DNA from: Methanomassiliicoccales archaeon
GTDB taxonomy: Archaea; Thermoplasmatota; Thermoplasmata; Methanomassiliicoccales; UBA472
Reading direction: 5' to 3'
Length of the DNA stretch: 64,000 nucleotides
Assembly: GCA_040765825.1 (NCBI GenBank)
Contig: JAXGRO010000006.1
Location: 4,203 to 68,202 of the forward strand
The position numbers and the translations under genes are program-made. Positions 6,317-37,728 of this stretch are shown here, one piece after another; positions within the stretch are counted from its first letter, which is position 1; each line of letters begins with the position of its first letter. The notes under the pieces are model-generated. The model searched no databases. It saw nothing but the letters and a program-made list of their open reading frames with translations, and was not told the DNA's origin.

Positions 6317-6700
6317 TCACTCGCCGATGTGCTTGCGGTAGGCCGCAGCGTCCATTAACTTGCCTAGCTCGCCATCCTCGGACATCCTGATGCGGGCCAG
6401 CCATCCGTTCTGGTACGGGGATTTATTTATCAGGGAGGGATCGTCGTCCACCGGGGAGTTCACCTCCACGACCTCTCCGGACACCGGGGCGTACACGTCC
6501 GCGGTGTTCTTGACGCTCTCCACCACCGCCAGGACCTCGCCCTTCTTGACCTTGGCGCCCGTCTTGGGAAGCTGCACATAGACGAACTCGGTCAGCTCGC
6601 CCTGGGCATGGTCGGTGATGCCCACGGTGGCCACCTCGCCCTCGACCTTCGCCCACTCGTGGTCCTTGGTGTAACGGAGTCCCTCGGGTACCTCGCTCAT
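6317..6700 (-). CDS. gcvH: Glycine cleavage system H protein / lipoyl carrier
   Basis: MSEVPEGLRYTKDHEWAKVEG..., with the lipoyl-lysine motif VESVKNTADVYAP. I used the ATG at 6700; the ORF-track start at 6865 adds a non-conserved 55-aa extension. Confidence 0.85.
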   Translation of the reverse strand: MSEVPEGLRYTKDHEWAKVEGEVATVGITDHAQGELTEFVYVQLPKTGAKVKKGEVLAVVESVKNTADVYAPVSGEVVEVNSPVDDDPSLINKSPYQNGWLARIRMSEDGELGKLMDAAAYRKHIGE

Positions 6701-6776
6701 GATATCTTCCAAGGGAACTAGGTACGAATATTTATGCCCCACGCGTGAGGACCGATAAGGGATAAATAGCTGGGGC

Positions 6777-10685: not shown

Positions 10686-10693
10686 TTATATAC
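10686..10693 (+). promoter_or_regulatory. TATA-like element upstream of cobT
   Basis: TTATATAC lies about 22 nt upstream of the palindrome centre and 67 nt upstream of the cobT ATG. Confidence 0.35.
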
Positions 10694-10759: not shown

Positions 10760-11863
10760 ATGCACGAGGCCGACATAATCTACGCGTTCGAGGAGCAGGC
10801 GGGAAGGAAGTTCGTGGAGAGGGTCTGGGGCAAGCGCCCGACCTACGCTGTGGTCATCGGGAACACCGAGACCGCCAAGATCCCTGGCGTTTCCGCTGCT
10901 GGCGCCGTGCCGGAGATCACCGACTTCACCCCCGCCGCGGACGTGGAGCTGCTGCATTACGGCCGGTGCAAGTGCATCGACGGCGTGCCGGTCACCCCCA
11001 CCGGCGTCCCCACCCCGGGGATAATCACCATGAGCGCCCTGCAGCTCTCGCCCATGCCCACCTTCGCCGTGAACGGGGGGGTCCGGGTCAGACCGCACAC
11101 CCCCTTCTTCGAGGTGGAGGGGGAGCCTGGCGAGGACATCCGCACCGGCAAGGCGCTCAAGGACCCCCGACGGGTGTATGAGAACGGCGTTCTGCTTGGA
11201 AGGGAGATGGCCAAGGGCAGCGAGTACTTGGTCATCGGGGAGAGCATCGCCGGGGGGACCACCACCGCCCTGGCGGTGCTCATGGCCATGGGATACGACG
11301 GCCATGGCAAGGTATCCAGCTCGATGATCGATAACCCCCATTCCCTGAAGGAGAAGATCGTCTCGGAGGGCATCTCCAACTCCCCGTTCTGCAGGGAGGA
11401 GATGAGGGCCGACCCCCTCAAGGCCGTGCAGGCCGTGGGCGACCCCATGATGCCCGCCGCCGCGGGAGTGGTGGCGGGAGCCGCGGAGAGCATACCTGTG
11501 ATAATGGCCGGGGGAACGCAGATGGCCGCGGTGATGGCCATCGTCAAGGGATTGGCGCCGAACGTCCTTTCGAACATCGCCCTGGGCACCACCAAGTGGA
11601 TAGTGAACGACCGAACGTCCGACGTTCGCTCGATAGTCAAGCAGATCGGCAGCGTTCCGATATTGGCCGCGGACCTGGACTTCGGACCGTCCAAGCACGA
11701 CGGGCTGAACGTTTACGAAAAGGGACTGGTCAAGGAGGGCGTGGGAGCCGGCGGCATATCCGTGGCGGCCTTCCTGGCCTCGCAGGGCAGGATCGGCAAA
11801 AATGAGATGCTGGCCAAGGTCGAGGAGAACTACGTCCAGCTCATGAGGATCATGGGCAAGTGA
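10760..11863 (+). CDS. cobT: Archaeal-type nicotinate-nucleotide--dimethylbenzimidazole phosphoribosyltransferase (CobT, UPF0284 family)
   Basis: Archaeal CobT-like sequence (VIGNTETAKIPGVSAAGA, VIGESIAGGTTTALAV, GDPMMPA, MAGGTQMAAV). ATG at 10760 chosen because the ORF-track TTG at 10709 is the first arm of the palindrome. Confidence 0.8.
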   Translation: MHEADIIYAFEEQAGRKFVERVWGKRPTYAVVIGNTETAKIPGVSAAGAVPEITDFTPAADVELLHYGRCKCIDGVPVTPTGVPTPGIITMSALQLSPMPTFAVNGGVRVRPHTPFFEVEGEPGEDIRTGKALKDPRRVYENGVLLGREMAKGSEYLVIGESIAGGTTTALAVLMAMGYDGHGKVSSSMIDNPHSLKEKIVSEGISNSPFCREEMRADPLKAVQAVGDPMMPAAAGVVAGAAESIPVIMAGGTQMAAVMAIVKGLAPNVLSNIALGTTKWIVNDRTSDVRSIVKQIGSVPILAADLDFGPSKHDGLNVYEKGLVKEGVGAGGISVAAFLASQGRIGKNEMLAKVEENYVQLMRIMGK

Positions 11864-12476
11864 GCCGCTGGTGCAGGACCTGCTCGGCCTTTTCCAGGTC
11901 CGGGACGGTATTTACGTTGATGGCCACATCGGGTGTGTCGGCGACGTAGTAGCTTCCTGGCAGATATTCCCGGGTGAGCATCCGTAGACGATCGACCACG
12001 CTCACCCCGCAGGGCATGAGCGGCCGACCGTCCACGTTCTCGTAGAACGTGACGTCCACCCCGAACTCTAAGGCCTTTTCCAAAGGTATGCCCACGGTCA
12101 GGGACTGCTCCTTCCTTTCTAGGTATTCCTTGACCACGTCGGCGACCAGTTCCGCTCTCAGCAGTGGCAGGTCGGCCGGGCAGATGAAGATGTGATCTTC
12201 GGATATCCCTTCCGCGGCCTGGATCAGGTCTTGGCAGTACTCGTCACCGGAGGTCTCCAGCAGCCTGACGCCCATCTGCGTGAGGTGCTCGCGCGTCCTC
12301 GGCACGTTATCGCTCACAGAAACGTAGACCGACCCTATCTCATCCACCAGCATGATCTGTTCCAGCACGTGGTCGATCATCGGCCGGCCGTGCAGGAGCG
12401 CCATCGGTTTCTCGGTCCCCAGCTCCCTGATCCTGGTACCCCGTCCTCCGGCGGTGATCAACGCGGCAACACTCAT
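11850..12476 (-). CDS. cobY: Adenosylcobinamide-phosphate guanylyltransferase, archaeal CobY type
   Basis: MSVAALITAGGRGTRI...EKPM is an NTP-transferase motif. The gene is small (about 208 aa) and last in the cob operon. Its ATG at 12476 overlaps the cobS stop. Confidence 0.8.
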   Translation of the reverse strand: MSVAALITAGGRGTRIRELGTEKPMALLHGRPMIDHVLEQIMLVDEIGSVYVSVSDNVPRTREHLTQMGVRLLETSGDEYCQDLIQAAEGISEDHIFICPADLPLLRAELVADVVKEYLERKEQSLTVGIPLEKALEFGVDVTFYENVDGRPLMPCGVSVVDRLRMLTREYLPGSYYVADTPDVAINVNTVPDLEKAEQVLHQRLTCP

Positions 12477-13228
12477 ACCGCCGCCCCCAGCAGGAGCAGG
12501 GCGATAAGCACCACCGGCCGACATATCTCGTTCGTCGCGCCCATGACATCACCGTTCACCGCCCCGAAGTTCCTCATGGCCACCCTGCTGTTCAGCAGCC
12601 CGACGGAGGCGCTGAACAACCCGCCGGCGACGGTGAACAGGGCGATCCTGTCGATGTACCAGTAACCGGTGGGCAGGCAAACCAATAGGATGATCCCGAA
12701 GGAGAGCAGGATGGACAGGATGATGGAGAGGAGGGCCTGCTTCCCCCGGGTATTGGTGACGAAGGAGTTCCCCAGCCCCTCCCGGGCCTTGCCTCCGAAG
12801 GCGCAGAACACCATGGCGTTCTTGTTCATGATCTCCGCGATGAGCGGCAGGAAGAGCAGCTCGGCCTTGCCGGTCAGCGAGGCCAGGGCGGCGAAGCTGA
12901 GCAGAGTGAATATCAGCGCATAACCTACCCCGCCAGCACCGGTCTTGGAGTCCTTCATGGCCGCCATACGACGCTCGGCGTCACCGCCGCAGACCATCCC
13001 GTCCCCGAAGTCGCTCAGCCCGTCCAGATGCAGGAAGCGGTTCAGAAGATGGAACGCCGCCAGGACGATGGCCGCCAGGACGGTCGTTGATAGACCGCCC
13101 TCCCCAAGGAAGAATATCCCGGAGGCCAGCAGCCCGTAAAGGGCGCCTATCAGGACGATTATGTGGAACCTCCTCGACAGTTCGTCCACGTCCTTCCCGC
13201 CCACCTTGGCCGGGATGACCGTGAACAT
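12473..13228 (-). CDS. cobS: Adenosylcobinamide-GDP ribazoletransferase (cobalamin-5'-phosphate synthase) CobS
   Basis: Polytopic membrane protein with HLDGLSDFGDG and GDVMGA motifs typical of CobS. The N-terminus (MFTVIP..) looks short, but no upstream in-frame ATG, GTG or TTG exists. Confidence 0.85.
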   Translation of the reverse strand: MFTVIPAKVGGKDVDELSRRFHIIVLIGALYGLLASGIFFLGEGGLSTTVLAAIVLAAFHLLNRFLHLDGLSDFGDGMVCGGDAERRMAAMKDSKTGAGGVGYALIFTLLSFAALASLTGKAELLFLPLIAEIMNKNAMVFCAFGGKAREGLGNSFVTNTRGKQALLSIILSILLSFGIILLVCLPTGYWYIDRIALFTVAGGLFSASVGLLNSRVAMRNFGAVNGDVMGATNEICRPVVLIALLLLGAAV

Positions 13229-13251
13229 GGTGAGAGCGGCCTTGAGCGCGC

Positions 13252-14397
13252 CTAGGAAAGCCGTCCCTCTCCCTCCAGTATCTCCGAGTAGATGACGGAC
13301 ATGGTCGAGCCTATGAGCGAAGCGACGATGTCGTCCATGAACGGCCCGAGCTTGGACAGTATTCCGGGTTTCTTCTTGTCATAGCGGATGTACTCGAACA
13401 GGCACTTGGTGCCCCCGATGTATTCTGCGAGCGCGATGCCTAGCAGCTCGTCGGCCAGGAGGTGCACGGGGTCCTCCTGGTACCTGGCCTCGGGAAGCCC
13501 GTACAGCTGCCCGTAGCGCCCCTTCTCCTCCAGGACCATGGCCGCGGTGAGCAGAGCGTTCACGTTCACGTCCTTGGCCAGCTGCTCGAGCTTGTTCTCG
13601 AACCTTTTTCTTATCGCCGATTCATCCCAGGCCGGGTCCAGGGCGTTCATCTGCCTGACGCATTCCCACATGTCATCGTAGGTGATGCCGCGGATGGCCA
13701 GATGCCTCAGGAAATGCACCGAGTCCCCGTTGGCGCCCTTCCACCTGGTGATCGATTCCCCCAGGGCCGAGCGCACGGCCACTGCCATGGCGATGCCGTG
13801 ATCGGAGGAGCTGCCGGACCACATGCACCTCTCACCCTCGGAGGGGCACATTATCAGCACGGCGTCGCTGGTGGTGCCGGTCCCGGGGATGTGATGGTCT
13901 TGAAGAGCGGCGGCCTTAGCCTCGGTCACGGTCATGACCGCGTTCGTCAGAGCGCAGTCGTCCAGCGGTTCGTCCGTCACCACCATGACGTTGATGGTGC
14001 CCACCTGGCGGTGCGGCACGCTGCCCTCGCGGGACGATTCGCCAGCGCGTATGGCGTTGGATATCCCGGCGCTAACGAAGGCCAGGGCCTCGGAGCCGTT
14101 CTGCTCGATGCCCTGGGAACAGAACGCCTTTTCCAGCTCGGCGGCGGTCATGAAGGAGACGGTGTCCGGGGGGAGCTCCAGCCGGGGAAGCAGCGACCGA
14201 AGGTGCTTCACCGGGTCCTCGTGGTCGTATTGCAGGGGCACCTGCAGCATGAGCACGGAATCGGTCTCCCCCAAGCCCCCGTTCAGTATGGTGGAGGCCA
14301 GTGTCCTCATGCGGCGGGGCAGCCTGATGGCCACGTAATTCAGCCCGTCCACCTTCCCCTTCTCTATCCGCACTTCCTCAAGCTTCATCTCAGACAC
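13252..14397 (-). CDS. cbiZ: Adenosylcobinamide amidohydrolase CbiZ fused to a C-terminal PgpA-like (CobZ-like alpha-ribazole phosphatase) domain
   Basis: The N-terminal 220 aa or so carry CbiZ motifs (TLASTILNGG, VGTINVMVV, TEAKAAAL, GTGTTSD). The C-terminal 150 aa or so end in GPFMDDIVASLIG, resembling the PgpA-family LDDxxAG motif. Confidence 0.75.
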   Translation of the reverse strand: MSEMKLEEVRIEKGKVDGLNYVAIRLPRRMRTLASTILNGGLGETDSVLMLQVPLQYDHEDPVKHLRSLLPRLELPPDTVSFMTAAELEKAFCSQGIEQNGSEALAFVSAGISNAIRAGESSREGSVPHRQVGTINVMVVTDEPLDDCALTNAVMTVTEAKAAALQDHHIPGTGTTSDAVLIMCPSEGERCMWSGSSSDHGIAMAVAVRSALGESITRWKGANGDSVHFLRHLAIRGITYDDMWECVRQMNALDPAWDESAIRKRFENKLEQLAKDVNVNALLTAAMVLEEKGRYGQLYGLPEARYQEDPVHLLADELLGIALAEYIGGTKCLFEYIRYDKKKPGILSKLGPFMDDIVASLIGSTMSVIYSEILEGEGRLS

Positions 14398-15385
14398 CCA
14401 TCAGTCCCAGCAGCAGGCCCTCCAGGAGGACCTGTGCCTCCGCCCCCACCAGCAGGTAGAGGGGCAGCACTATCGCGATCACGAAGAGATACGAGGCCAG
14501 GGTCATGACCTTTATGGTGTCCCTGAGCACCTCGGGGCCCGACGGCAGCGGACCGTCGCCCATCACGTACCAGCCGATCTTCTCGAAGCGGATGCCCAGG
14601 CCGCCGGCGAAGGCGGACATGTGCCAACCCTTGTTGGGGGAGAGGGTCTGGTCGTGGTACTTCCGGGAGGCCCTCCACCCGGCCCTCCAGTCCTTGCCCA
14701 GCAGCGCCAGCGCCGCCAGGATGAAGGGCACCGCCGCCCGGGCCATGAGCCAGTTGGTGCAGTCGTCCAGCTTGGCCGAGAACCAGCCCACGTGGCGGTG
14801 CCTGTCGTTCAGGTAGCCGACCATGGCGTCCAATGTGTTCGATACGCGATACGCCACGGCCGCCGGCAGCCCCAGAAGACCGAAGTAGAACAGCGGGGAG
14901 AAGATGGAGTCCACGGTGTTCTCCGCCGCGCTCTCCGCGGCGCAGGAGATCACGTGCCCCTCGTCCAGCTGGCTGACGTCCCGGGAGACCATCATGGCCG
15001 CCTTCTCCCGGCCAAGCTCCAGGTCGCCGGCCAGCAGCGCCTCTCGCACCGGCTCGGTGTGCTTGCCCATGGCCGCCATGGCGAACATGGTCTTCAGGAC
15101 CACCCCGCCCACCAGGGCCCAGGCCAGCAGCCCCAGGTAATGGCGCACCAGGGCCATGAGCAGCAGGGCCAGGAAGGAGAAGGTGATGATCACCGCCAGG
15201 GCCATCAGCGCCCCCAGCAGCCGCTCCCTCCGGGGATGCCCCCGGGAGATGCGCCTGTCGAAAAAGGATATCATGCCCCCCATCCACACCACCGGGTGCA
15301 GGGCGTTGGGAGGTTCGCCCAGCAGGCGGTCCACCAGCAGGGCCACCAGCAGCATCAGCAGTGCGTAGGGGAGAAGCTCAAACAT
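14390..15385 (-). CDS. cbiB: Adenosylcobinamide-phosphate synthase CbiB/CobD (membrane)
   Basis: LLGEPPNALHPVVWMG N-terminal motif, ESAAENTVD and SPNKGW motifs, and a polytopic membrane profile. Confidence 0.9.
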   Translation of the reverse strand: MFELLPYALLMLLVALLVDRLLGEPPNALHPVVWMGGMISFFDRRISRGHPRRERLLGALMALAVIITFSFLALLLMALVRHYLGLLAWALVGGVVLKTMFAMAAMGKHTEPVREALLAGDLELGREKAAMMVSRDVSQLDEGHVISCAAESAAENTVDSIFSPLFYFGLLGLPAAVAYRVSNTLDAMVGYLNDRHRHVGWFSAKLDDCTNWLMARAAVPFILAALALLGKDWRAGWRASRKYHDQTLSPNKGWHMSAFAGGLGIRFEKIGWYVMGDGPLPSGPEVLRDTIKVMTLASYLFVIAIVLPLYLLVGAEAQVLLEGLLLGLMGV

Positions 15386-16523
15386 GCATGCGCGCTCCGA
15401 AGGCCGTGCTGCGCATCTCCTGCGCCGTCTCCTCCATGGCGGAGATGAGCAGGTCGTTCTTCTCCGGGGTCTTCACGCTGAAGCGCACGAAGCGGTCGAA
15501 CGGCCTGCCGAAGGTGGAGCAGTCCCTGACCAGCACCCTGCGGGGAAGGAGGTGCTCCACCACGTCCTCGGCGGAGAGCCGGGGATTGGATACCCGGGTG
15601 AAGAAGAAGAAGCACTGGTCGGGCAGGGGGGAGAACAGCCCGGTGCGGTCCACGGCCCTCTTGATGCGGCCGCGCTCCGAGGCCATCATCTCCGCGGCCT
15701 TGCGCACGTGGCCGCGGTGGTCGCGGAGCAGCCGGGCCCCCACCTGCTGCTCCACCACCCCCAGGTTCCAGGAGAGCCTGGCGCGGTCCAGCATGTCCAC
15801 GATCTCCTCGCTTCCCACCCCATAGCCCACGCGCATCCCCGGGATGGCGTACGATTTGGTGAGCGAGGAGATGATGAACATGTTGCGGTGGTTGCGGACC
15901 TCCGGCATGCAGGTGATGGCCTCGTAGCCGTCCACCAGGTCCAGGAGGGTCTCGTCCAGGAATATCAGCTTGCCCAGGGACTCGCACTCCTCCACCAGCT
16001 CCATTATGCGCCGCCTGGTCTCCAGGGTGCCGGTGGGGTTGTTGGGGTTGCAGACGTATACCGCCTTCACCAGGGGGAGCTTCTCGCGTATGGCGTTCAT
16101 GTCCAGGCGGAACCCGTCCCCCTCGACCAGGGGCACGTCCAGAACGTTGGCCCCCTGCATGCGGCAGGCGTGGGAGTACTCGGAGAAGGTCGGCCGGGGA
16201 ATGATCACCCGGGACTTGCGGGACAGGAACACCTCCGGATACAGGCGGATCAGCTCCGCGGAGCCGGCCCCGGCGATGACGTTCTCCGGGGACACATGGT
16301 GCAGGGAGGCCACCGCCTCCCGGAAGTCCGCGGAGGAATCGTCGGGGTAATGGGTCAGATGCTCCACGGCCTCGGCCACCAGCTGCGGAAGCTCGGCTGG
16401 AGGCCCGTAGGGGTTCAGGTTGTGGCTGAAGTCCTCCACCCCGGAGAACCTCCATCCCTGCCCCCCGTGAACGGGCCGCTTAATCGGCAACAATTCCTTT
16501 TTCACAAGGTCTTGGATCTGCAT
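15378..16523 (-). CDS. cobD: L-threonine-O-3-phosphate decarboxylase (CobD, class I/II aminotransferase fold)
   Basis: HGG...DFSHNLNP, CNPNNPTG and SLTKSYAIPGMRVGY (PLP lysine) motifs. Positioned between cbiB and the transporter genes. It has no N-terminal kinase extension. Confidence 0.8.
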   Translation of the reverse strand: MQIQDLVKKELLPIKRPVHGGQGWRFSGVEDFSHNLNPYGPPAELPQLVAEAVEHLTHYPDDSSADFREAVASLHHVSPENVIAGAGSAELIRLYPEVFLSRKSRVIIPRPTFSEYSHACRMQGANVLDVPLVEGDGFRLDMNAIREKLPLVKAVYVCNPNNPTGTLETRRRIMELVEECESLGKLIFLDETLLDLVDGYEAITCMPEVRNHRNMFIISSLTKSYAIPGMRVGYGVGSEEIVDMLDRARLSWNLGVVEQQVGARLLRDHRGHVRKAAEMMASERGRIKRAVDRTGLFSPLPDQCFFFFTRVSNPRLSAEDVVEHLLPRRVLVRDCSTFGRPFDRFVRFSVKTPEKNDLLISAMEETAQEMRSTAFGARMHV

Positions 16524-17343
16524 CGTCGCCCTTCTCCGGTTCCGCCGGCCTCAGGGGGATCACGAATATCTCGCCCTTCTCCCTGATCACCGTGACCTCC
16601 ACGCCGTACACCGCGCGGATGATCTCCTCGTTGATGACCTCCGAAGGAGGTCCGTAGCTCAGTATCCCGCCGTCGCTTATCACTATCACCAGATCCGCGT
16701 ACTTGGCGATCAGGTTGATGTCGTGCGAGGCGGTGATGACCGTCACGCCCTGCCGGGAGAGGTCCTTCAGGGCCTGCATCACCTGCAGCTTGAACTTGAG
16801 GTCCAGATGGGCGCTGGGCTCGTCCGCCAGCAGTATCTTCGGCTGCTGCACCGCCCCCTTGGCCAAAAGCACACGGGCCTTCTCCCCGCTGCTCAGCTCC
16901 CCCAGCTTGCGGTCCTTTAGGTGGGTGACGTGATAGGCGGCCATGGCCTCCCTGACCATCCTCTCGTCCTTCTCCCCCTCCCACCATATTCCGGTGACGA
17001 ACGGGTATCGCCCCAGGGCCACGAACTCCTCCACGGACAGGTGGAAATCGTCCGGGACGTCCGCGGGGATGTTGGCGCAGAGCTTGGCCACCTCCATCAT
17101 CTTCAGGCGGTCCAGGTCCTTGCCGTCGATGAGTATGACGCCCTCCTGGGGCTTTAATACCTTGTTTATGCAGCGCATGAAGGTGGTCTTGCCGCAGCCG
17201 TTGGGCCCCATTATGCCGATGAGCTGCCCCTTGCGGGCGTGGATGGTGACGTCCTTCAGCGTCTTGCCGCAGGGGTTCCTCTTGGAGCCGTAGCTGAAGG
17301 AGATGCTGTCCACCCTCACCGTCAGCTCGTCCTCACATGACAT
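16480..17343 (-). CDS. ABC transporter ATP-binding protein, iron-siderophore/cobalamin (FepC/BtuD-like) family
   Basis: Walker A GPNGCGKTT, signature LSSGEKARV and Walker B LLADEPSAHLD. The gene overlaps its neighbours. Confidence 0.85.
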   Translation of the reverse strand: MSCEDELTVRVDSISFSYGSKRNPCGKTLKDVTIHARKGQLIGIMGPNGCGKTTFMRCINKVLKPQEGVILIDGKDLDRLKMMEVAKLCANIPADVPDDFHLSVEEFVALGRYPFVTGIWWEGEKDERMVREAMAAYHVTHLKDRKLGELSSGEKARVLLAKGAVQQPKILLADEPSAHLDLKFKLQVMQALKDLSRQGVTVITASHDINLIAKYADLVIVISDGGILSYGPPSEVINEEIIRAVYGVEVTVIREKGEIFVIPLRPAEPEKGDDADPRPCEKGIVAD

Positions 17344-18400
17344 ATTCCTTGCCCATCCTGATCATCAGGTAGCCGAAGAACGGCGCCCCGATGATCGATA
17401 TTATGGCCCCTATCGGCAGCTCCGAGGGGGCCATCACCGTCTTACATACAATGTCCGCCAGCAAAAGAATGTTTGCCCCGACCACCATGGAGGCCGGGAG
17501 CAGCAGGCGGTGATCGCCGCCGATGATCATACGCACCAGGTGCGGGACGATCAGCCCGACGAAGCCTATGACCCCGGTGAAGGCCACCGAGATGGCGGCC
17601 AGCGCCGATACCAGTATGAACATGCCGGTCTTGAACTTCTTGACGTCCATGCCCAGCTGCCGGGCCTGCTCGTCCCCCAGGAGCACCACGTTGAACTCCT
17701 TGGCGAAGAGCAGCATTATCGCCGAGAGCACGGAGACGCCGATGATCATGATGATCACCGACAGCCAGTCCAGGTAGGCGAAGGAGCCGAACAGCCAGAA
17801 CAGCACCCCGTGCAGCCGGTCGGCGTTGTAGTACATGAGTATGGTGGTTCCGGACTGCAGGGCTATGCCCACGATGACCCCGCCCAGCACGTAGCTTATC
17901 GGCCGGCCCCCGGCGGCCTCGGCCAGGAGCATGGTGAAGATGAACGCGCCCACCGCCCCGATGAAGGCCATGACCGGGGTCACGAAGGTACCAAGCCCTC
18001 CGATGGTGACCCCGGCCAGCACGGCCGCGGTCACTCCCAGGGCCGCCCCGGAGGAGACCCCGGTGATGTATGGATCGACCAGCGGGTTCTTGATCAGGGC
18101 CTGCATGACCGCCCCGGAGACGGAAAGCCCGACGCCCACGGCGATCACGCCCAGGGCCCGGGGGATGCGCAGCTGCCAGAGCACCAGCTCCTGCACGTTC
18201 TGATGCATGCCCCCGTTCTGTATGAGGTTCCACACCCCGGACATGGCCTCGGTGAAGGATATGTCCATCACCCCGGTGGTGAGGGAGAGGATGAAAAGAA
18301 GGACCAGGCTGAGGGAACCGAACCCCAGTATCAGGGCCAATTTGATCTTGGCCCGCCTGGCCTTGGAATCGTTCACGTGGAGCACCTCGTGGTTGGACAA
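17333..18400 (-). CDS. ABC transporter permease, FecCD/BtuC family
   Basis: About 10 predicted TM segments, with RIPR and GxxxGxxG-type motifs (LRIPRALGVIAVG, PIGAIISIIGAPFF). The ORF-track start is TTG at 18400; GTG at 18385 or 18376 is possible. Confidence 0.85.
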   Translation of the reverse strand: MSNHEVLHVNDSKARRAKIKLALILGFGSLSLVLLFILSLTTGVMDISFTEAMSGVWNLIQNGGMHQNVQELVLWQLRIPRALGVIAVGVGLSVSGAVMQALIKNPLVDPYITGVSSGAALGVTAAVLAGVTIGGLGTFVTPVMAFIGAVGAFIFTMLLAEAAGGRPISYVLGGVIVGIALQSGTTILMYYNADRLHGVLFWLFGSFAYLDWLSVIIMIIGVSVLSAIMLLFAKEFNVVLLGDEQARQLGMDVKKFKTGMFILVSALAAISVAFTGVIGFVGLIVPHLVRMIIGGDHRLLLPASMVVGANILLLADIVCKTVMAPSELPIGAIISIIGAPFFGYLMIRMGKEYVM

Positions 18401-18402
18401 AG

Positions 18403-18425
18403 GGGGCCGGCCATCGGCCGACCCC
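18403..18425 (-). other. Intercistronic GC-rich hairpin between the binding-protein and permease genes
   Basis: On the minus-strand RNA, GGGGUCGGCC-GAU-GGCCGGCCCC forms a 10-bp stem with one G-U pair. The same position is a C-A mismatch on the plus strand, which argues for function in the minus-strand transcript. Confidence 0.4.
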
Positions 18426-18498
18426 GGATGTCGTTTGGTTCCCGTAACGCGGGGCGTCTATTATATTTGCGCCCTGGTCACGGGTAAGGAGGATGTTC

Positions 18499-19593
18499 TC
18501 ATTCGATTCTGGCCATCATCACCTGTCCCAGGTTCAGGGCGCTCTCGAGGGAGTCCACATGGGAGCTGGACCCCGCCGACAGCAGGTCGACGTAGTCGTT
18601 GGATATCACATGCGGCATGTCCTCACCGAACACATCGGGGTGGAGGATCTTGGCCATGATCTCCACGGCGTCCACCATGCGCGGGCCGGGGCGGCAGAAC
18701 ACGTTGTCGGCCTGTCCGGTCATGATGTACACGCGGCCGTTCTGGACTGCGGAAAGCTCGGACCATATGGTGTCGTTCTCCAGATCGGAGATAATCTGCT
18801 CACCGGGGTTGGGCAGGTACATCATGGACACGATCAGGTAGTCAGGGTCCTTCTCCAGCAGGGACTCCACGGCCACGTCCGGCCATCCGCCGGTCATGTT
18901 CCCGTAGGCGTTCTCGCCCTTCGAATAGTCCATGACATCCTGGACGAAGGTATCGCCGGCGCTCAGGTAGATGGGCTCCAGCCAGACGGCGAACACCATG
19001 GATGGGGGCTCATCCACATCGCCCATGGCCGCCTCTATGGTGGCCAGGCGGCCCTGCATGGAGGCCACCAGGCCCTCGGCCTCGTCCTTGACCCAGCAGA
19101 CCTCTCCGAGCAATTCGATGGTCGAGTAGACCTCCTCGAAGGTCGCGCCCTTGTCCAGTATTATGACCTTCTGGGCGGACCCCTCCAGCTGGGAGAGCAT
19201 GTCCATCTGGGCCTGCACGCCCTTGTCGAGCAGCACCAGGTCGCCTCCGGCGGCGATGATCGCCTCCACGCTGGGGGTCCAGTAGCCGCCTATGGAGACC
19301 AGGGATCCGTCGGTCTTCCTGTCGCCCACATCCGTGGGCCAGTCGCAATAGTCGGTCACCGCCACCAGGCGGTCACCGATGCCCAGAGCGTAGACGATCT
19401 CCGTCAGAGATGGAGAGCAGGACACCAAGCGCGCCGGAGCTTCCTTGGTGACCACCAACCGTCCGTCGGCGTCGATGACCGACACCGGTCCCTCGCCCTC
19501 CCCACCAGAGGGGTTCATGGCCAGAACTGCAATGGTACCAACGGCCACCATGGCCAGGACCACTAAAACCGCTATTATCATCTTCCTGTTCAT
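18499..19593 (-). CDS. Periplasmic-type substrate-binding protein, BtuF/FhuD (cobalamin/siderophore) family, membrane-anchored
   Basis: MNRKMIIAVLVVLAMVAVG signal/anchor, then class III SBP features (VSCSPSLTEIVYALG, DLVLL, PGPR). ATG at 19593 chosen over the upstream ORF-track start at 19692. Confidence 0.8.
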   Translation of the reverse strand: MNRKMIIAVLVVLAMVAVGTIAVLAMNPSGGEGEGPVSVIDADGRLVVTKEAPARLVSCSPSLTEIVYALGIGDRLVAVTDYCDWPTDVGDRKTDGSLVSIGGYWTPSVEAIIAAGGDLVLLDKGVQAQMDMLSQLEGSAQKVIILDKGATFEEVYSTIELLGEVCWVKDEAEGLVASMQGRLATIEAAMGDVDEPPSMVFAVWLEPIYLSAGDTFVQDVMDYSKGENAYGNMTGGWPDVAVESLLEKDPDYLIVSMMYLPNPGEQIISDLENDTIWSELSAVQNGRVYIMTGQADNVFCRPGPRMVDAVEIMAKILHPDVFGEDMPHVISNDYVDLLSAGSSSHVDSLESALNLGQVMMARIE

Positions 19594-19617
19594 TTGATCA
19601 CGCTGGTTGATGTTAAA

Positions 19618-19634
19618 TTGGATGTATAATCCAA
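19618..19634. promoter_or_regulatory. Palindromic operator-like site 1: TTGGAT-GTATA-ATCCAA
   Basis: Perfect 6-bp inverted arms around an AT-rich 5-nt spacer. The centre is 33 nt upstream of the binding-protein ATG, so it overlaps the expected TATA/BRE position. Confidence 0.6.
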
Positions 19635-19639
19635 CTGAA

Positions 19640-19656
19640 TTGGATATATCATCCAA
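19640..19656. promoter_or_regulatory. Palindromic operator-like site 2: TTGGAT-ATATC-ATCCAA
   Basis: Perfect arms, centred 22 bp (two helical turns) from site 1. It abuts the TATA-like AAGTATATTAG (19656-19666) of the divergent plus-strand gene. Confidence 0.6.
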
Positions 19657-19737
19657 GTATATTAGCGTTGGCGAAATGCTCCGACCTAGCAAGGCATAAG
19701 AACTCCGCTAGCGCCTTACCGGCTGGGAGATGGAACC

Positions 19738-20217
19738 GTGAAGATCATCGACGAGCTCAGGAGCGAACCTATCCTGCTGGCCCACCATCCCCTCTGCGGC
19801 AGGTTCGAGGACCACTTCCTGGTGTGGAGGGGAAGGCGCCTCTGCCGGGGGTGCTTCACAGTGTACCCGACCGCGGCGGCGGTGCTTCTGGTCATGTGGG
19901 CGCTGGGCGCGGGGTTCCAGGCCTCCTTCGTTCTGGCGGTGACCCTTTTCGCCGTCCAGCTCCTGCGGGCCCTGCCCGCGCTGAGGCCGCTCAAGGTACT
20001 TTTCAACGTCATCATGGGTGTGAGCCTGGCCTCGGTGCTCCTAGCCGTGATCACCTGCCCTCCGCAGCTGAGGTGGTACGTGTACCCCTTCGTCCTCGCG
20101 GTCTACGTCACCTTCGTCTACCTGAAGGGCCGAAGGGTCCTGAGGACCTGCAGGGAATGCTCCGATCACGCCTCCTTCCCGGGATGCGCCAGGGGGAGCG
20201 CGAGGAACGGAAGGTGA
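19738..20217 (+). CDS. DUF2085-like Cys-rich integral membrane protein
   Basis: GTG start. HHPLCGRF...RLCRGCFTVYP resembles the DUF2085 CHQ..ER..CARCTG pattern. About 4 TM helices and a C-terminal CRECSDH..PGC. Confidence 0.55.
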   Translation: MKIIDELRSEPILLAHHPLCGRFEDHFLVWRGRRLCRGCFTVYPTAAAVLLVMWALGAGFQASFVLAVTLFAVQLLRALPALRPLKVLFNVIMGVSLASVLLAVITCPPQLRWYVYPFVLAVYVTFVYLKGRRVLRTCRECSDHASFPGCARGSARNGR

Positions 20218-20266
20218 GGCGAGGGATTAATTATCAGGTAATTGAATTCAGGCCGGGGGAAAGAAA

Positions 20267-20632
20267 GTGACCAAGACATTCACTGGGGATTGGATCATCG
20301 TCATCATCCTGCTCATCGTGTGCTGGCCGGTGGCGGTGATCTACCTGTTGATGAAGTACGAGGAGGTTCCGCCATACGCTCCGCCAGGAGCCCCTCCCGC
20401 CGGGGGCCCGGCCCCGGGAGGCGCCTACGGCCCGCACGGTGGCATGCGGGTCTGCGGGGCCTGCGGCAGCAGCTACGATTACAGCAAGGACGCCTGCCCG
20501 TACTGCGGCAAGCCCTCTTACTACGCCAACGCCGCCCCGCCCTATGACCACAGCGTAAAATATTGTCCCAATTGCCGTGGCCCCAACGACATGAGGGCGG
20601 AGTACTGCTCAAAGTGCGGGACCAAGCTCTGA
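20267..20632 (+). CDS. Membrane-anchored double zinc-ribbon protein
   Basis: N-terminal TM helix (WIIVIILLIVCWPVAVIYLL), a Pro/Gly-rich linker, then CGACG..CPYCG and CPNCRG..CSKCG ribbons. Confidence 0.55.
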   Translation: MTKTFTGDWIIVIILLIVCWPVAVIYLLMKYEEVPPYAPPGAPPAGGPAPGGAYGPHGGMRVCGACGSSYDYSKDACPYCGKPSYYANAAPPYDHSVKYCPNCRGPNDMRAEYCSKCGTKL

Positions 20633-20638
20633 CCGTCT

Positions 20639-21466
20639 TCAGAGCAGGCGTTCCAGGGCCACCAGGTCCAGGGCGCCCGACCAGCCCTCCAGCAGATCAT
20701 CCAGTCCGCCCAGCCACCGCTGGCGGACGTCCCCGCCGACGCCCGAGTGTCCGTGTTCCCTCCCCAGGTCCATGGAGTCCTCCGCGGGGGCGCTGAACCG
20801 GACCATGGGGAGCACCCCCAGGCAGGGCATCTCCATGCGGGATTCCAGCTCGGAGATCCCGGGCCCCAGAATGGAGGGGTCTCCGCGGAAGCGGTTTATC
20901 ACGAAGCCCTTCAGGAGGTCCCTCTCCTCCTCGTCCATCAGCAGGTAGGTTCCGTAGATGCCGGCGAAGGCCCCGCCCTTCTCGATGTCCCCCACCAGCA
21001 CCACCGGGGAGCGCACCGCCTTGGCCAGCCACATGTTGGCCACGTCCCTTTCCTTCAGGTTCATCTCCACCGGGGAGCCCATGCCCTCCAGCAGCACCGC
21101 CTCCCTGCCCAGGGCATTGTCGCGGAAGGACCGGAGGACCTCCTCCCTCAGCTGGTCGATCGGCCGGCGGCCGTCCCCTGGCGCCAGGTCCATCCAGGGC
21201 CGGCCCCGCAGGACTATCTGGCATTGCCCGTTGCCCTTGGGCTTGATCAGAACGGGGTTCATGTCCGCCGAAGGTTCCAGTCCGCAGGCCCAGGCCTGAT
21301 AGGCCTGCGAGATGGCCATCTCCTTCCCGTCGGCGGTGACGAACGAGTTCAGGGACACGTTCTGGGCCTTGAAGGGGGCCACGTCCATTCCCTTCCGGGA
21401 GAGGTGGCGGCAAAGCGCCGCGGTCAGGGTGGTCTTCCCCGCGCCGGAGGTGACCCCCTGGACCAT
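20639..21466 (-). CDS. CobQ-like protein consisting only of the N-terminal nucleotide-binding/corrinoid domain (no glutamine amidotransferase domain)
   Basis: It aligns with the upstream CobQ from the P-loop (MVQGVTSGAGKTT vs MVLGATSGAGKS) to PAEDSMDLGRE vs PVEDSMDLGRR. It then jumps to a short tail (LDLVALERLL vs LDIDRLLG). The ATG at 21466 shares its A with the cobQ TGA. Confidence 0.75.
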   Translation of the reverse strand: MVQGVTSGAGKTTLTAALCRHLSRKGMDVAPFKAQNVSLNSFVTADGKEMAISQAYQAWACGLEPSADMNPVLIKPKGNGQCQIVLRGRPWMDLAPGDGRRPIDQLREEVLRSFRDNALGREAVLLEGMGSPVEMNLKERDVANMWLAKAVRSPVVLVGDIEKGGAFAGIYGTYLLMDEEERDLLKGFVINRFRGDPSILGPGISELESRMEMPCLGVLPMVRFSAPAEDSMDLGREHGHSGVGGDVRQRWLGGLDDLLEGWSGALDLVALERLL

Positions 21467-23316
21467 CAGCCTACGCACCGTCGCCTCCACCCCCCCAGCA
21501 GCCTGTCGATGTCCAGATGCGCCTCCAGCTCCCGGGCCAGGCGGTCGAGCGAGGCGTCCACCTCGGCGTCGTGGTCCTGCCCTCCCGAGGGATGGCATCG
21601 TTCACCGCCCAGCGAAAGGAACAGCTCGCGGAAGGCCGGCAGGTCGAAGGCCCCGTGCAGGTAGGTCCCCATGACCTTCCTCTCCCGGTCCCAGGCCCCC
21701 TCCTCCCTTCCGTCCGGCTCCAGCAGGAACAGCGGAGGGGCGCGCACCTCCGTGCTCCCCATGTGTATCTCGTACCCGCGGACCTGCCCTCCGTCCACCA
21801 GCCTCCCTGCGACCTGCACGGTCCTCTTGTCGTAGGTGTCGAAGCGGGTCACCGCGTCCAGAAGCCCGAGCCCTTCCACATGGGCGGAGGTACCGCCCTC
21901 CAGGCCCTGCTCGTCGATTATCGCCGCCCCGAGCATCTGGTAACCTCCGCATATGCCCAGGATGGGGACCTCCCCCGCCCGGCGCACTATGACCGAGGCC
22001 ATGCCCGAGCCGCGCAGCCAATGGAGGTCCTGCACCGAGTTCTTGGTCCCGGGGATGATGATGGCGTCCGCGCATTCCAGCTGCTCCGGGCGTTCGGCGT
22101 AGACCACCGAGACGCCCTCCTCCAGCCCCAGGGCGTCGAAGTCGGTGAAGTTGGAGATCATGGGCAGACGGACCACCGCCACCACCTTTCCGCCCCCCTC
22201 GGCCCTCCGGCCAAGGTCCATGGAGTCCTCCACCGGCAGGTACAGGCCGGGGACGTGGGGCATCTCCGCCACCACCGGCACGCCGGTAAGCCTCTCGACC
22301 ACCTCCAGGGCGGGACCCAAGGAGCCCCCGCCGGGGCACATGTTGTTGATCACCACGCCCTTGAACAGCGCCCTGTCCTGGGGGTCCAGCAGGTCCAGGG
22401 TCCCCACGGCGAAGGCGAAGGCCCCTCCCCAGTCCACGTTGACAACCAGAAGGCAATCAGCATTCACCAGCCTGGCCACGTACATGTTGGCCACGTCCCT
22501 GCCCCGCAGGTTGATCTCGGCCGGGGAACCGGCGCCCTCGATGACCACCACGTCGTTGGAGCGCATGAGCCGTTCCAGATTGCGTTCGATTATGGACGGC
22601 GCCTCGTTCGGAACAAAGTCGGCATAGTACTCCTGCACCGTGTAATCCCGGTAGGGCCGTCCCTCCACGATGACCTGGGAGACCACCCCGCCCTTGGGCT
22701 TCAGCAGAATGGGATTGAGCTCCCCCCGGGGCCGGGTGCCCGCTGCGCGGGCTTGCAGGTCCTGGATGCGGGCGATCTCCTCGCCCCCCTCGGTGACCAT
22801 GGAGTTCAGGGACATGTTCTGCGATTTGAACGGGGAGACCTTCAGCCCCCGGTTGCGCAGGGCCCGGCACAGCGCGGCGACGATGAGGGATTTTCCGGCT
22901 CCGGAGGTGGCCCCCAGCACCATGATGGCCTTGGCCCTCCTGCGGTGCCTGGCCACGAGCGCCCCCTTGAGCTCGTCCCTGGTCTGGCGGTCCAGTCCCT
23001 GAGGGCCTATCTCCGGCATGGCCTGGAACAGGGATGCGGCGACATCCTGGCGATGGGTCCACAGGCACCGCTGGCATGACCATACGCTTCCGCCGGTGCG
23101 CCTCGACACCACGAACTCGCCCAGCTCGGGGTCCTCGCATGGATACAGCGGGCAGAAGCAGAAGGTGCAGTCCTGATCGGAATGGTGGCAGGGGAAGTGG
23201 GGGCATTCGGTGTTGCTTCCGATAATCCCCCTGGCCATCTGCGAGCGCAGGACGCCGACGTGCTTGGAGTAGTTCTCCTCGGAGTCGTCCTGCCGTCCCT
23301 CAATTGGATTAATCAT
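21466..23316 (-). CDS. cobQ: Cobyric acid synthase CobQ/CbiP with N-terminal cysteine-rich small domain
   Basis: Residues about 30-90 are Cys-rich (CPHFPCHH..CTFCFCPLYPC...CQRC). Then come the CobQ ATP-binding domain (P-loop GATSGAGKS) and a GATase-1 domain (IIIPGTKN, ILGICGGYQML, GYEIHMG). Confidence 0.85.
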   Translation of the reverse strand: MINPIEGRQDDSEENYSKHVGVLRSQMARGIIGSNTECPHFPCHHSDQDCTFCFCPLYPCEDPELGEFVVSRRTGGSVWSCQRCLWTHRQDVAASLFQAMPEIGPQGLDRQTRDELKGALVARHRRRAKAIMVLGATSGAGKSLIVAALCRALRNRGLKVSPFKSQNMSLNSMVTEGGEEIARIQDLQARAAGTRPRGELNPILLKPKGGVVSQVIVEGRPYRDYTVQEYYADFVPNEAPSIIERNLERLMRSNDVVVIEGAGSPAEINLRGRDVANMYVARLVNADCLLVVNVDWGGAFAFAVGTLDLLDPQDRALFKGVVINNMCPGGGSLGPALEVVERLTGVPVVAEMPHVPGLYLPVEDSMDLGRRAEGGGKVVAVVRLPMISNFTDFDALGLEEGVSVVYAERPEQLECADAIIIPGTKNSVQDLHWLRGSGMASVIVRRAGEVPILGICGGYQMLGAAIIDEQGLEGGTSAHVEGLGLLDAVTRFDTYDKRTVQVAGRLVDGGQVRGYEIHMGSTEVRAPPLFLLEPDGREEGAWDRERKVMGTYLHGAFDLPAFRELFLSLGGERCHPSGGQDHDAEVDASLDRLARELEAHLDIDRLLGGWRRRCVG

Positions 23317-23320
23317 CCAA
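23304..23320. promoter_or_regulatory. Palindromic operator-like site TTGGAT-TAATC-ATCCAA overlapping the cobQ start codon and predicted TSS
   Basis: The arms are perfect and extend to 7 bp (ATTGGAT / ATCCAAT). The annotated ATG (23316-23314) lies inside the right arm. A TATA-like ATAATATC lies at 23341-23348, about 30 nt upstream on the minus strand. Confidence 0.6.
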
Positions 23321-23340: not shown

Positions 23341-23348
23341 ATAATATC
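23341..23348 (-). promoter_or_regulatory. TATA-like element for cobQ (minus strand GATATTAT)
   Basis: AT-rich octamer 25-32 nt upstream of the cobQ ATG in a GC-rich spacer. This is consistent with a leaderless transcript. Confidence 0.35.
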
Positions 23349-29511: not shown

Positions 29512-31011
29512 TCAGTGTACCGGGTGCAGAATGGTCAGCTGCCTGACGCCCTCGCCGTGGTCGAACGGCATCACGTAGCAGTCCATGGCCTGGACGGAAC
29601 CGTCCTTGCAGGACACCAGGCAGGGCATTATCATCCGGCCGTCATCGCTAGCCCGGCGCACCTCGCTGCCCTGCCTCCGGGGGCGCATGATGGCCGAGGG
29701 ACCCCCCAGGGCGTTGAGCTCGGCGACGCTGTAGCCCAGGCTGCGGACCAGTATGCGGTTCACGGAGATGACCCTTCCATCGGCCGAGCTCACCATGACC
29801 GGGTGCGGGCAGCCGTTCATGGTCCCCCGGAAGGAGCCCTCGGGGTCCTGGGCCTCCATGGCCATGGCCCCGGCCCGGTCCCACATCTCCTGCATCTGCC
29901 GGGGATTGGCGCTCCTCTGGCGGGCTATGACCACTATGCGGTCCACGCGTTCCATCATCTTTATGGGGACCAGCCTGAGCTCGGCCTCCACGCGCCCCGC
30001 CGCGGCGTCCAGGGACACGTCCACGATGGTGCTGCACCCGTACTGGAAGATCTCCTCGAATATCCTCCGCCCGCTGCTGGGAGCCCCTGGGAACAGCTCG
30101 TACACGCCGCGGCCCTCGTAGGACGTGGGCATGCCCGCGTCCTCCAGGTACCGGACGAAGGTCTGGTTGCCGTTGGTGACCCGCAGCTCGCGGTCCACCA
30201 TGAACACCATATCCTCGATCGCGTCCAGCATGGTGCGCAGGTTGATGTCGGCCTGCAGCAGGGAGAACTCCATCATCTTCCGCCGCAGGACCTCGCCCTG
30301 CAGCTCGCGGTTGACCCTGGCCAGCCGGGACCTCTCCTCCTCCGCGCTCAGGCGCTCCTCCTGCTCGACCCTGATATTGTCGAGGAGGTGGAACAGGTCG
30401 CGGTTGGGGTCCGCGACGCCCTCCCCCATGCTGGGCAGGTAATAGGAGTTGCGGCTGAGCACCCCGTCGATAATCACCATGGGATAGGAGGCCAGGGACC
30501 GGAGCAGGAACTCGGGCGACAGCAAGGACATGTCATAGAGGCAGACGACCGTTAAGTTCAGTTCCTCCCGGACCGCGTCCAGGTCCCTCCAGGCCCGGTC
30601 CGACGGCACCTGCGCGGCCAGGTCCTCGGGCACGTTCAGGATCAGGCGGGCCCCGGAATACCCAAGCGCCCTCGCCTGTTTGGCGAACGCCCGCATCTGC
30701 TCCCCGATGGTCGCCTCGGACATGCGGCCGATGTTGGCCCTGTCCATGTGTATCAGGACCACGGACGGGTGCATGTCCAGGTCCAGTCCCCCGTCCCTCA
30801 GGAGCTCCCTGAGCCGGGCCGGGGGCGTGCGGCACACGAAGGCGCACATCTCCCTCTGCTCGATGCTGTCCCTGAGCAGGCAGGCCACGGTGTCCAGCAC
30901 ATCCTCCAGGCGGCGGTAGAAGACCGCAGCCTTCTCCCCGGGGGGCAGCGGGGACGGTACGCGGGGTGGAACGGTTGAGGTTTCGATCTGCGGACCATCC
31001 GAACCGGCCAC
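29512..31011 (-). CDS. Sensor protein: N-terminal MEDS domain, coiled coil, two PAS domains, no recognisable output domain
   Basis: MEDS-like pattern (REMCAFVC.., LTVVCLYDMSLLSPEFLLRSLASYPMVIIDGVLSRNSYY). An E/R-rich coiled-coil segment follows, then two PAS-like modules (MLDAIEDMVFMVD...; HPVMVSSADGRVISVN...). GTG start. Confidence 0.7.
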   Translation of the reverse strand: MAGSDGPQIETSTVPPRVPSPLPPGEKAAVFYRRLEDVLDTVACLLRDSIEQREMCAFVCRTPPARLRELLRDGGLDLDMHPSVVLIHMDRANIGRMSEATIGEQMRAFAKQARALGYSGARLILNVPEDLAAQVPSDRAWRDLDAVREELNLTVVCLYDMSLLSPEFLLRSLASYPMVIIDGVLSRNSYYLPSMGEGVADPNRDLFHLLDNIRVEQEERLSAEEERSRLARVNRELQGEVLRRKMMEFSLLQADINLRTMLDAIEDMVFMVDRELRVTNGNQTFVRYLEDAGMPTSYEGRGVYELFPGAPSSGRRIFEEIFQYGCSTIVDVSLDAAAGRVEAELRLVPIKMMERVDRIVVIARQRSANPRQMQEMWDRAGAMAMEAQDPEGSFRGTMNGCPHPVMVSSADGRVISVNRILVRSLGYSVAELNALGGPSAIMRPRRQGSEVRRASDDGRMIMPCLVSCKDGSVQAMDCYVMPFDHGEGVRQLTILHPVH

Positions 31012-37673: not shown

Positions 37674-37698
37674 CATTTTCAACGCCCCCATCGAATGG

Positions 37699-37706
37699 TT
37701 ATTTAA
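37699..37706 (+). promoter_or_regulatory. TATA-like element upstream of mre11
   Basis: TTATTTAA lies 23-30 nt upstream of the ATG at 37729. Confidence 0.35.
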
Positions 37707-37728
37707 GCCCGGCCCCTAATCCCGGCGG

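Follow-up and report, generated by a model that had tools for sequence, protein, structure and literature searches.

A conserved palindrome at cobamide gene promoters of Methanomassiliicoccales: a candidate operator that adjoins DUF4443 genes in other archaea

Cobamide genes and the palindromes at their promoters

The DNA analyzed here, a 64-kb stretch from a Methanomassiliicoccales archaeon (the window), carries a cluster of cobamide (B12) genes, and our subject is a short palindrome, TTGGAT-N5-ATCCAA, that lies at three promoters of this cluster. The gene map was built by open reading frame (ORF) calling guided by G+C content at third codon positions, combined with Pfam and NCBIfam searches; both databases agree with the assignment of these genes to cobamide transport, salvage and biosynthesis in the original prediction, which had been made from the bare sequence. 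One minus-strand operon runs from btuF (Peripla_BP_2) through btuC (FecCD), btuD (ABC_tran), a cobD-type aminotransferase gene (Aminotran_1_2), cbiB (CobD_Cbib), cbiZ (CbiZ) and cobS (CobS) to cobY (NTP_transf_3), in a gene order that is the same in the related loci L009 to L011, L133 and L134 (L numbers denote loci fetched for comparison). The product of cobQ/cbiP (23316-21466) combines an N-terminal Cys-rich, zf-like domain with CbiA and GATase_3 domains by Pfam, and its gene is paired with one for a CbiA-like NTPase, as it also is in relatives. The third unit is cobT. Coordinates are collected in Table 1.

Four copies of the pattern are present in the window, three perfect and one with a single mismatch, and all four are at the promoters of btuFCD-cobD-cbiB-cbiZ-cobS-cobY, cobQ/cbiP and cobT; none lies elsewhere in the 64 kb. 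The original prediction had placed two tandem perfect palindromes at btuF with centers 22 bp apart, a perfect copy at the cobQ start and a one-mismatch copy before cobT, and its coordinates for all of them are exact. It had also argued that chance would yield far less than one copy. Indeed, the expected count with up to one mismatch is 0.06, none of 100 dinucleotide-preserving shuffles reached four, and base composition (65% G+C) predicts only 0.00065 perfect copies per 64 kb. Half-sites number 20, seven within the four sites and 13 isolated, against about 13 expected by composition. Since isolated half-sites occur at about the expected frequency, it is the full palindrome that stands out as a special element. 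The earlier statement that only isolated half-sites occur elsewhere therefore stands, with a correction to one of its examples, a TTGGAT that lies at 15586-15591 and not at 15587-15592.

All sites can be oriented as TTGGATG-(4 nt, mostly A/T)-ATCCAA. Because position 7 is G in every one of them, the motif is not fully symmetric: the arms TTGGAT and ATCCAA of the predicted perfect palindrome hold, but the symmetry of the whole does not. The arms of the cobQ site can be extended to 7 bp in this genome only. The two btuF sites lie in a spacer (19594-19737) bounded by the btuF ATG (19593, minus strand) and a GTG at 19738.

Table 1. Predicted regulatory elements and associated genes in the window (strand "." for sites given without orientation)
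Feature	Position	Strand	Sequence or basis
Predicted btuF operator site beside the TATA box	19640..19656	.	TTGGATATATCATCCAA (TTGGATGATATATCCAA in btuF direction); perfect match
Second predicted btuF operator site, covering the predicted btuF transcription start	19618..19634	.	TTGGATGTATAATCCAA; perfect match
Predicted cobQ/cbiP operator site, start codon inside	23304..23320	.	TTGGATTAATCATCCAA; perfect match
Predicted cobT operator site, weaker half-site AACCAA	10709..10725	.	TTGGATGATACAACCAA; one mismatch
Predicted btuF TATA box	19657..19664	-	TAATATAC on the minus strand; assigned from conservation
Predicted cobQ TATA box ATATTAT, preceded by an AAAGG block resembling a B recognition element (BRE)	23341..23347	-	conserved block
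Predicted cobT TATA box TTATATA	10686..10692	+	conserved AGGTTA(A/T)ATA block; about 16-17 bp upstream of the site
Putatively regulated operon: btuF, btuC, btuD, cobD-type aminotransferase gene, cbiB, cbiZ, cobS, cobY	11850..19593	-	Pfam domains
cobQ/cbiP, then CbiA-like NTPase gene	20639..23316	-	Pfam
cobT, archaeal-type nicotinate-mononucleotide phosphoribosyltransferase	10760..11863	+	TIGR00303, 389 bits (cut-off 240)
Divergent genes: 159-aa Cys-rich membrane protein; transmembrane and zinc-ribbon protein	19738..20632	+	regulon membership uncertain

Conservation of the sites in related loci

The original prediction had named phylogenetic footprinting as a check. We compared 15 related Methanomassiliicoccales loci (209,656 bp) whose BtuF proteins are 35-70% identical to that of the window. 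In the genome collection, all BtuF relatives came from Methanomassiliicoccales or Methanomassiliicoccus metagenome-assembled genomes at 47-70% identity; the more distant ones, down to 35%, were gathered through protein look-ups. Gene order around the cob cluster is strongly conserved among them. Together the 15 loci hold 36 perfect and 11 one-mismatch copies of the motif, and in the annotated syntenic loci every copy but one is at the btuF, cobQ or cobT promoter. The single exception, at position 4461 of L011 before an ABC-2 transporter gene, is not conserved in relatives and was set aside, as was L008, a BtuF match at 47% identity that is a fusion protein in another context and without the motif.

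The btuF double site is perfect in L001 to L007, L009 to L011, L134 and L090. The cobQ site is found in every locus that spans the region and is conserved in 10 relatives, and the cobT site recurs with the same weaker half-site in L002, L007, L009, L010, L011 and L134 and is perfect in L109. When 12 btuF upstream regions are aligned, a TATA-like element and the 40-bp double site stand out as the sole invariant intergenic blocks, while the flanks diverge freely. The arms of the second site (Table 1) are invariant in relatives, and the TATA-proximal site is invariant in the 12 loci except for one spacer base. The centers of the two sites are 22-23 bp apart in relatives, or two helical turns, as in the window. 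At the far end of the sample, GATATATAC in L133 (BtuF 35% identical) is followed, 21 bp downstream, by a perfect site, and the cobT TATA box of that locus, 17 bp downstream, by a one-mismatch site; of the two one-mismatch sites in L132 (43% identical), the first lies 17 bp from TTTATATATGG. The sites are thus conserved at orthologous promoters down to 35% BtuF identity. That the same three promoters carry them in the 15 loci while the flanks diverge lends strong support to the proposal of a protein operator for an archaeal cobamide regulon.

The 40-bp double-site module of L011 (9938-9977) is the exact reverse complement of that of L090 (108-147), with collinear flanks. It looks like an inversion of the module between its own inverted arms, which suggests that the orientation of the asymmetric spacers may not matter for function.

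Promoter layout

A (T/A)(T/A)TATA(C/T) block lies immediately upstream of the btuF double site in all relatives. At btuF this block abuts the first site, and the second site begins 22-23 bp further on, in the place that single sites take at the other promoters; the predicted btuF start would therefore fall at the edge of the second site.

The cobQ promoter begins with AAAGG plus ATATTAT (23347-23341, minus strand), and the site follows after 20 bp; the block AAAGGATATTATGG is invariant in alignment A2. The cobQ ATG (23316-23314, minus strand) is inside the site, which reads TTGG-ATG-ATTAATCCAA. Codon-like conservation begins exactly at this ATG within the motif, and a changed spacer in L003 stays in frame. 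With the start codon inside the predicted operator, the first codons (M-I-N-P) would be constrained by a putative DNA-binding site. Moreover, because the TATA box is centered about 28 bp upstream of the ATG, the cobQ transcript is likely leaderless. The cobT promoter has its TATA box and site in the same order, followed by a leader of about 35-40 nt with a Shine-Dalgarno (SD)-like CCAGAGGT; this element and the ATG at 10760 are both conserved.

Across promoters the gap from the conserved TATA-like block to the site is 0-22 bp. It is about 16-22 bp at cobT, at cobQ and in L132 and L133, the last two of which fall at 17-21 bp. The sites are non-random, conserved, tied to cobamide genes and placed shortly downstream of conserved TATA-like blocks. 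Placement between the TATA box and the predicted transcription start, or on the start itself, is typical of archaeal repressors. Here the original prediction needs revision: it had read the spacers as TATA-like and had a bound dimer compete directly with TATA-binding protein (TBP) and transcription factor B (TFB), but the predicted, conserved TATA boxes lie just beyond the palindromes and not within them. Instead of merely taking the place of TBP, a protein bound there would obstruct the start site and RNA polymerase or TFB.

The motif at other loci

Metagenome DNA was scanned with the pattern TTGGATGATNNATCCAA, which returned at least 120 stretches, a number that supports no enrichment statistic. 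Most of the 120 matches listed are chance occurrences in unrelated low-GC contigs. Others among the matches listed have an archaeal promoter context and are at cobamide, tetrapyrrole or transport genes: the motif is at btuF in L090 and L077, at a cobT 66% identical to that of the window in L109, in the divergent region between cbiX and sirC-hemA in L122, and at an ABC ATPase/FecCD transporter in L064. Another of the matches listed, L076 (45% G+C), has five sites within 8 kb, all of them 3-12 nt before a start codon; the genes that bear them encode FecCD-FecCD-ABC, two secreted or anchored proteins and a 151-aa protein, and all adjoin cobN. The unannotated proteins of this locus (L076:3419-6089) measure 354 aa (with a transmembrane anchor and internal repeats), 420 aa (with a weak Peripla_BP_2 match) and 151 aa, and are candidates for new corrinoid-binding or uptake components.

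Separately, L085 (59% G+C) has copies at 1198-1214 and 8905-8921 that flank a FecCD/ABC transporter. One of them is 18 nt upstream of a gene for an O-methyltransferase-MarR fusion, which could be an alternative or additional regulator, or there by chance.

DUF4443 proteins as candidate regulators

The window itself offers no obvious regulator gene, as the original prediction had noted; its only candidates are a fusion of an ArsR-type helix-turn-helix (HTH) domain with an S-adenosylmethionine (SAM)-dependent methyltransferase and a MEDS-PAS sensor. The fusion (41642-42718, minus strand) is the only HTH protein in the window. Its architecture resembles that of the S-adenosylhomocysteine-sensing regulator SahR, no motif copy lies near its gene, and it was rejected as a direct binder. 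The MEDS-PAS protein (29512-31011) was rejected for want of a DNA-binding domain, and the 159-aa divergent gene product because it is a membrane protein.

In other archaea, the motif adjoins genes of one family. Among the 120 matches listed, five loci (L033, L045, L060, L063 and L095) encode a DUF4443 protein within 2 kb of the motif; L033, L045 and L095 were recognized first, and L060 and L063 were added by a hidden Markov model (HMM) search of all fetched sequence. Because DUF4443 genes are rare in metagenomes, we judge five in 120 to be far above chance, for which a rough estimate gives fewer than 0.02. The L033, L045 and L095 proteins are homologous winged-helix proteins with the Pfam architecture PH0730-like_N/CggR_N plus DUF4443. 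In L095 the site overlaps the start of the DUF4443 ORF. The order in L045 is site, energy-coupling factor (ECF) S-component gene, DUF4430 gene and DUF4443 regulator gene. The L033 site lies between a PgpA-like gene and cobS on one side and an ECF S-component gene, a diphthamide-synthase-like gene and the DUF4443 gene on the other, and in both L060 and L063 it separates the DUF4443 gene from cbtA, which encodes a putative cobalt transporter. DUF4430 is the C-terminal domain of transcobalamins (PMC4350170).

Look-ups that started from the protein gave the same association, with a TGGAT/ATCCA palindrome at the promoter of the DUF4443 operon in four of five cases. In Bathyarchaeota (L135/136 and L138 to L140), a perfect TTGGATGATCCATCCAA is next to a TATA-like block before an operon of S-component, DUF4430 and DUF4443 genes. 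L137 has the same three genes as an operon, and L142 has them as a divergent pair plus the regulator gene; in both, the palindrome has the form TGGAT-N1-ATCCA: GGTTGGAT-T-ATCCAACC (6701-6721) in L137 and GGCTGGAT-A-ATCCAGCC (5908-5928) in L142, for an overall pattern of (T/C)TGGAT-N-ATCCA(A/G) in these lineages. The N5 spacing of the window is found in L033, L045, L060, L063, L095, L135 and L138. At the level of 13 specified bases, TTGGATG....ATCCAA occurs by the DUF4443 genes of L060, L063 and L095; in L033, L045, L135 and L138 it occurs together with an additional, nested half-site. This pairing of motif and DUF4443 gene is seen in Bathyarchaeota and in contigs that resemble Nitrososphaerota and Iainarchaeota.

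The Bathyarchaeota site TTGGATGATCCATCCAA fits the N1 and N5 patterns simultaneously. The GAT that is conserved after TTGGAT in the window sites may be a remnant of an N1 design.

The DUF4443 family comprises about 1,400 clusters at 50% identity, with named members in Bathyarchaeota, Nitrososphaerota, Thermoplasmatota and 'Ca. Iainarchaeum', and NCBIfam holds no model for it. Its sole solved structure is that of the hypothetical protein PH0730 of Pyrococcus horikoshii (2P8T), a structural-genomics entry without assigned function. This is what the candidate regulators match by sequence (E = 6e-21) and also their best Foldseek match; the fold search returned only PH0730, an AspRS (aspartyl-tRNA synthetase) insertion-like domain and winged-helix regulators. 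The model of the C-terminal domain (predicted local distance difference test score, pLDDT, 80.6) resembles only PH0730 and the AspRS insertion domain and gives no clue to a ligand. The full-text literature that we searched contains no description of this motif, nor of a function for DUF4443.

Proposed mechanism and alternative explanations

Taken together, the site positions and their conservation lead us to favor, as fairly probable, a widely distributed archaeal system of B12-responsive repressor and operator, in which the four palindromes are predicted operators. The repressor would most likely be a dimeric winged-helix protein that binds all four palindromes sequence-specifically, and the btuF double site would hold two dimers on one face of the helix. 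When the cell has sufficient corrinoid, the three promoters would be switched off together, and with them cobamide uptake and salvage (btuFCD-cobD-cbiB-cbiZ-cobS-cobY), lower-ligand activation (cobT) and cobyric acid synthase (cobQ/cbiP). The bound protein would allow TBP to bind and keep TFB or RNA polymerase off the start site; at cobQ, the occupied site would hold the start codon of a probably leaderless mRNA. Repression is the more probable sign of control, activation the lesser, because the predicted operators are downstream of the TATA box and over the predicted start, as is typical of archaeal repressors. A corrinoid effector, suggested by the content of the regulon and the transcobalamin-like partner gene, has in our estimate an even chance or slightly better. 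We put the chance that a DUF4443 protein does the binding in this organism somewhat above even, since the motif is identical to that beside DUF4443 genes elsewhere. The broadest version is more tentative and in our view falls somewhat short of even: DUF4443/PH0730-like proteins would be widespread archaeal corrinoid-sensing repressors, in Methanomassiliicoccales, Bathyarchaeia, Nitrososphaerota and DPANN, that bind corrinoids through a domain of a new kind and whose TGGAT/ATCCA operators define the archaeal B12 regulon. If so, that regulon would extend over transport, salvage, late biosynthesis and cobalt uptake and be a protein counterpart of the bacterial cobalamin riboswitch.

Several observations weigh against the DUF4443 assignment. 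By Pfam, the proteins contain only PH0730-like_N/CggR_N and DUF4443 and no known B12-binding domain. An HMM search found no DUF4443 gene in the window, 14 syntenic loci or about 250 kb of Methanomassiliicoccales DNA, and two profile searches, an HMM search of 1.84 billion proteins and the cluster names gave no named Methanomassiliicoccales member. The DUF4443 gene of L141 (Thermoplasmatota) has no copy of the motif and no cob gene in its neighborhood, which shows that a link to B12 is not universal in the family. Lineages also differ in the spacing of the half-sites, N5 here and N1 in L137 and L142, a difference that calls for an explanation if one DNA-binding family reads them all. The operator could accordingly be real and be read in Methanomassiliicoccales by another winged-helix regulator, of TrmB, ArsR or MarR type, its likeness to the DUF4443-linked motif reflecting convergence or a replaced regulator. 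The lack of a DUF4443 gene in the sequences searched fits this, as do the 6-N5-6 layout, which is shared with TrmB-family sites such as that of Thermococcales, and the L085 site before a methyltransferase-MarR fusion gene. However, absence from 64 kb means little, because regulators are often encoded far from their targets, and the same 13 bases, TTGGATG....ATCCAA, adjoin DUF4443 genes in other phyla; we regard a different regulator as unlikely, though to be taken seriously. A real operator might instead answer to another signal, such as cobalt, a different metal, or methylated growth substrates, whose supply determines how much corrinoid protein the cell needs. The motif is at cbtA in L060 and L063, FecCD/Peripla_BP_2 transporters also carry metal chelates, and a MEDS-PAS gene is conserved near the cluster. 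Yet the window regulon consists of salvage and nucleotide-loop assembly genes, none of which handles free cobalt, the regulator operons also hold the transcobalamin-like DUF4430 gene, and bacterial cbtA is itself under B12 riboswitch control. A non-corrinoid signal is, on this evidence, rather improbable.

Two further readings would do without a DNA-binding protein. Palindromes at mRNA 5' ends could act as RNA hairpins that control translation or stability; transcripts probably include the second btuF site and the cobT site, and in silico the sequences fold as hairpins with energies of -13.8 kcal/mol (cobQ) and -15.8 kcal/mol (btuF pair). But the arms are invariant without compensatory changes while the loop or spacer varies, and the longer stem to which the cobQ hairpin owes its strength is confined to this genome. 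In the conserved cobT variant a stem pair is lost, and its folding is no better than that of shuffled sequences (z = -0.94). Moreover, the TATA-proximal btuF site is upstream of the predicted start, the left arm of the cobQ site would be untranscribed if cobQ is leaderless, and Rfam has no match, so that a hairpin role seems very unlikely. As for chance matches or remnants of a small repeated mobile element without regulatory role, the AT-richness of promoters is all that speaks for them; shuffles exclude chance, positions are conserved at orthologous promoters across 35-70% protein identity, and there are no other copies in the 64 kb. We give this reading practically no weight and retain the repressor-operator system described above.

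Relation to known systems

Archaea account for a large part of the production and consumption of cobamides in the environment, and methylotrophic methanogens cannot do without corrinoid proteins. To our knowledge, archaea have no B12 riboswitches, and we know of no B12-responsive regulator characterized in archaea; the reviews that we checked are silent on archaeal B12 regulators. At Rfam gathering thresholds, the window has no match to the cobalamin riboswitch (RF00174), in accord with the original prediction, nor to an RNA family of any kind. In bacteria, this riboswitch controls the same gene set (btuF-type transporters, late cob/cbi genes, cbtA), presumably with the same feedback logic, but it is an RNA aptamer in an mRNA leader, and the element here is a short DNA palindrome at a predicted archaeal start site. 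In function, the proposed system would be the archaeal counterpart of the bacterial cobalamin riboswitch regulon, while in mechanism it looks like a classical archaeal repressor-operator pair. MDR1, LrpA, TrmB/TrmBL1 and NrpR are archaeal repressors that block polymerase recruitment from operators over the start site. They share with the predicted system palindromic operators downstream of the TATA box that overlap the start, in same-face pairs that allow cooperative binding; they differ in recognition sequence and protein family, and binding and repression are here predictions.

Among TrmB-family operators, the Thermococcales glycolytic motif (TGM) is TATCAC-N5-GTGATA and the Halobacterium motif TACT-N7-8-GAGTA. 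The window arms TTGGAT/ATCCAA differ from these in sequence, and only the 6-N5-6 geometry is common with TGM. In Halobacterium, cobalamin genes are reportedly under the control of TrmB, which acts on them through another motif. RbkR (riboflavin) and ThiR (thiamine) are archaeal winged-helix vitamin regulators that were found by comparative genomics; they too act through palindromic operators on vitamin biosynthesis and transport genes in the role of bacterial riboswitches, but with other sensor domains, motifs and vitamins. The DNA-binding domain of the candidate regulators resembles the N-terminal winged helix of CggR (CggR/SorC), which differs in sensing fructose bisphosphate through an unrelated sugar-binding domain. 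The bacterial CarH/CarA proteins are protein regulators with a cobalamin ligand, as is putatively the case for the candidate. CarH, however, is a MerR-type light sensor with a canonical B12-binding domain, a domain absent from DUF4443 proteins by Pfam, and it controls carotenoid genes.

The word 'undescribed', which the original prediction had applied to the regulon, needs a caveat. Rodionov et al. reportedly described in 2003 (J Biol Chem) a 'CBL-box' for a hypothetical B12 regulator in some archaea, whose consensus may or may not be the same as TTGGAT-N5-ATCCAA. It is said to be likewise a palindromic DNA signal upstream of archaeal B12 genes with no regulator assigned; Methanomassiliicoccales were undiscovered at that time, and the signal is not known to have been linked to DUF4443 in that study. 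Relative to the searchable literature, it is new that the motif is linked to DUF4443/PH0730, that its promoter layout is conserved and that it extends over several archaeal phyla. The result offers a conserved operator candidate with a clear promoter layout, a small, coherent putative regulon and a candidate regulator family with an existing crystal structure (2P8T), and so makes the long-standing question of archaeal B12 regulation directly testable. The motif is also usable to annotate B12 transporters and salvage genes in uncultured archaea, for example the unannotated membrane or secreted proteins of L076 and L095, ECF S-component/DUF4430 pairs, and FecCD systems that are otherwise indistinguishable from iron transporters.

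Other features of the window

The two genes divergent from btuF encode proteins of no assigned family: the 159-aa protein has no Pfam or NCBIfam match, and the transmembrane and zinc-ribbon protein no family assignment. The pair is absent from L011, L090 and L133, though the sites are kept there. The 159-aa gene has a GTG start in the window; most relatives have ATC at the aligned position, after a GGAGGTG SD-like block (alignment A1, columns 25-40), which suggests that the gene starts with a non-canonical codon or at another position.

The MEDS-PAS gene (minus strand in the window) is directly upstream of btuF in L133 (8370-9887) and L077 (436-2073), an association with the cob cluster that may be mere conserved gene order. 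Further along, a Na+/H+ exchanger gene in the 35920-38700 region is split over two frames, with 35920-36792 covering positions 4-276 of the Pfam profile and 36606-37220 positions 279-370, and an Mre11-type gene (Pfam Metallophos) is undetectable upstream of the Rad50-like SMC_N gene (38702-41254), unlike in L133. Either frameshift or decay of the genes or assembly errors would account for both. Finally, a TGGAT-N6-ATCCA at 6165, considered as a further site, is probably a chance match inside a small coding ORF. This host ORF (6087-6317, plus strand), which is unannotated, has 76 codons and a good coding signature and lies between AhpC-like and GcvH-like genes.

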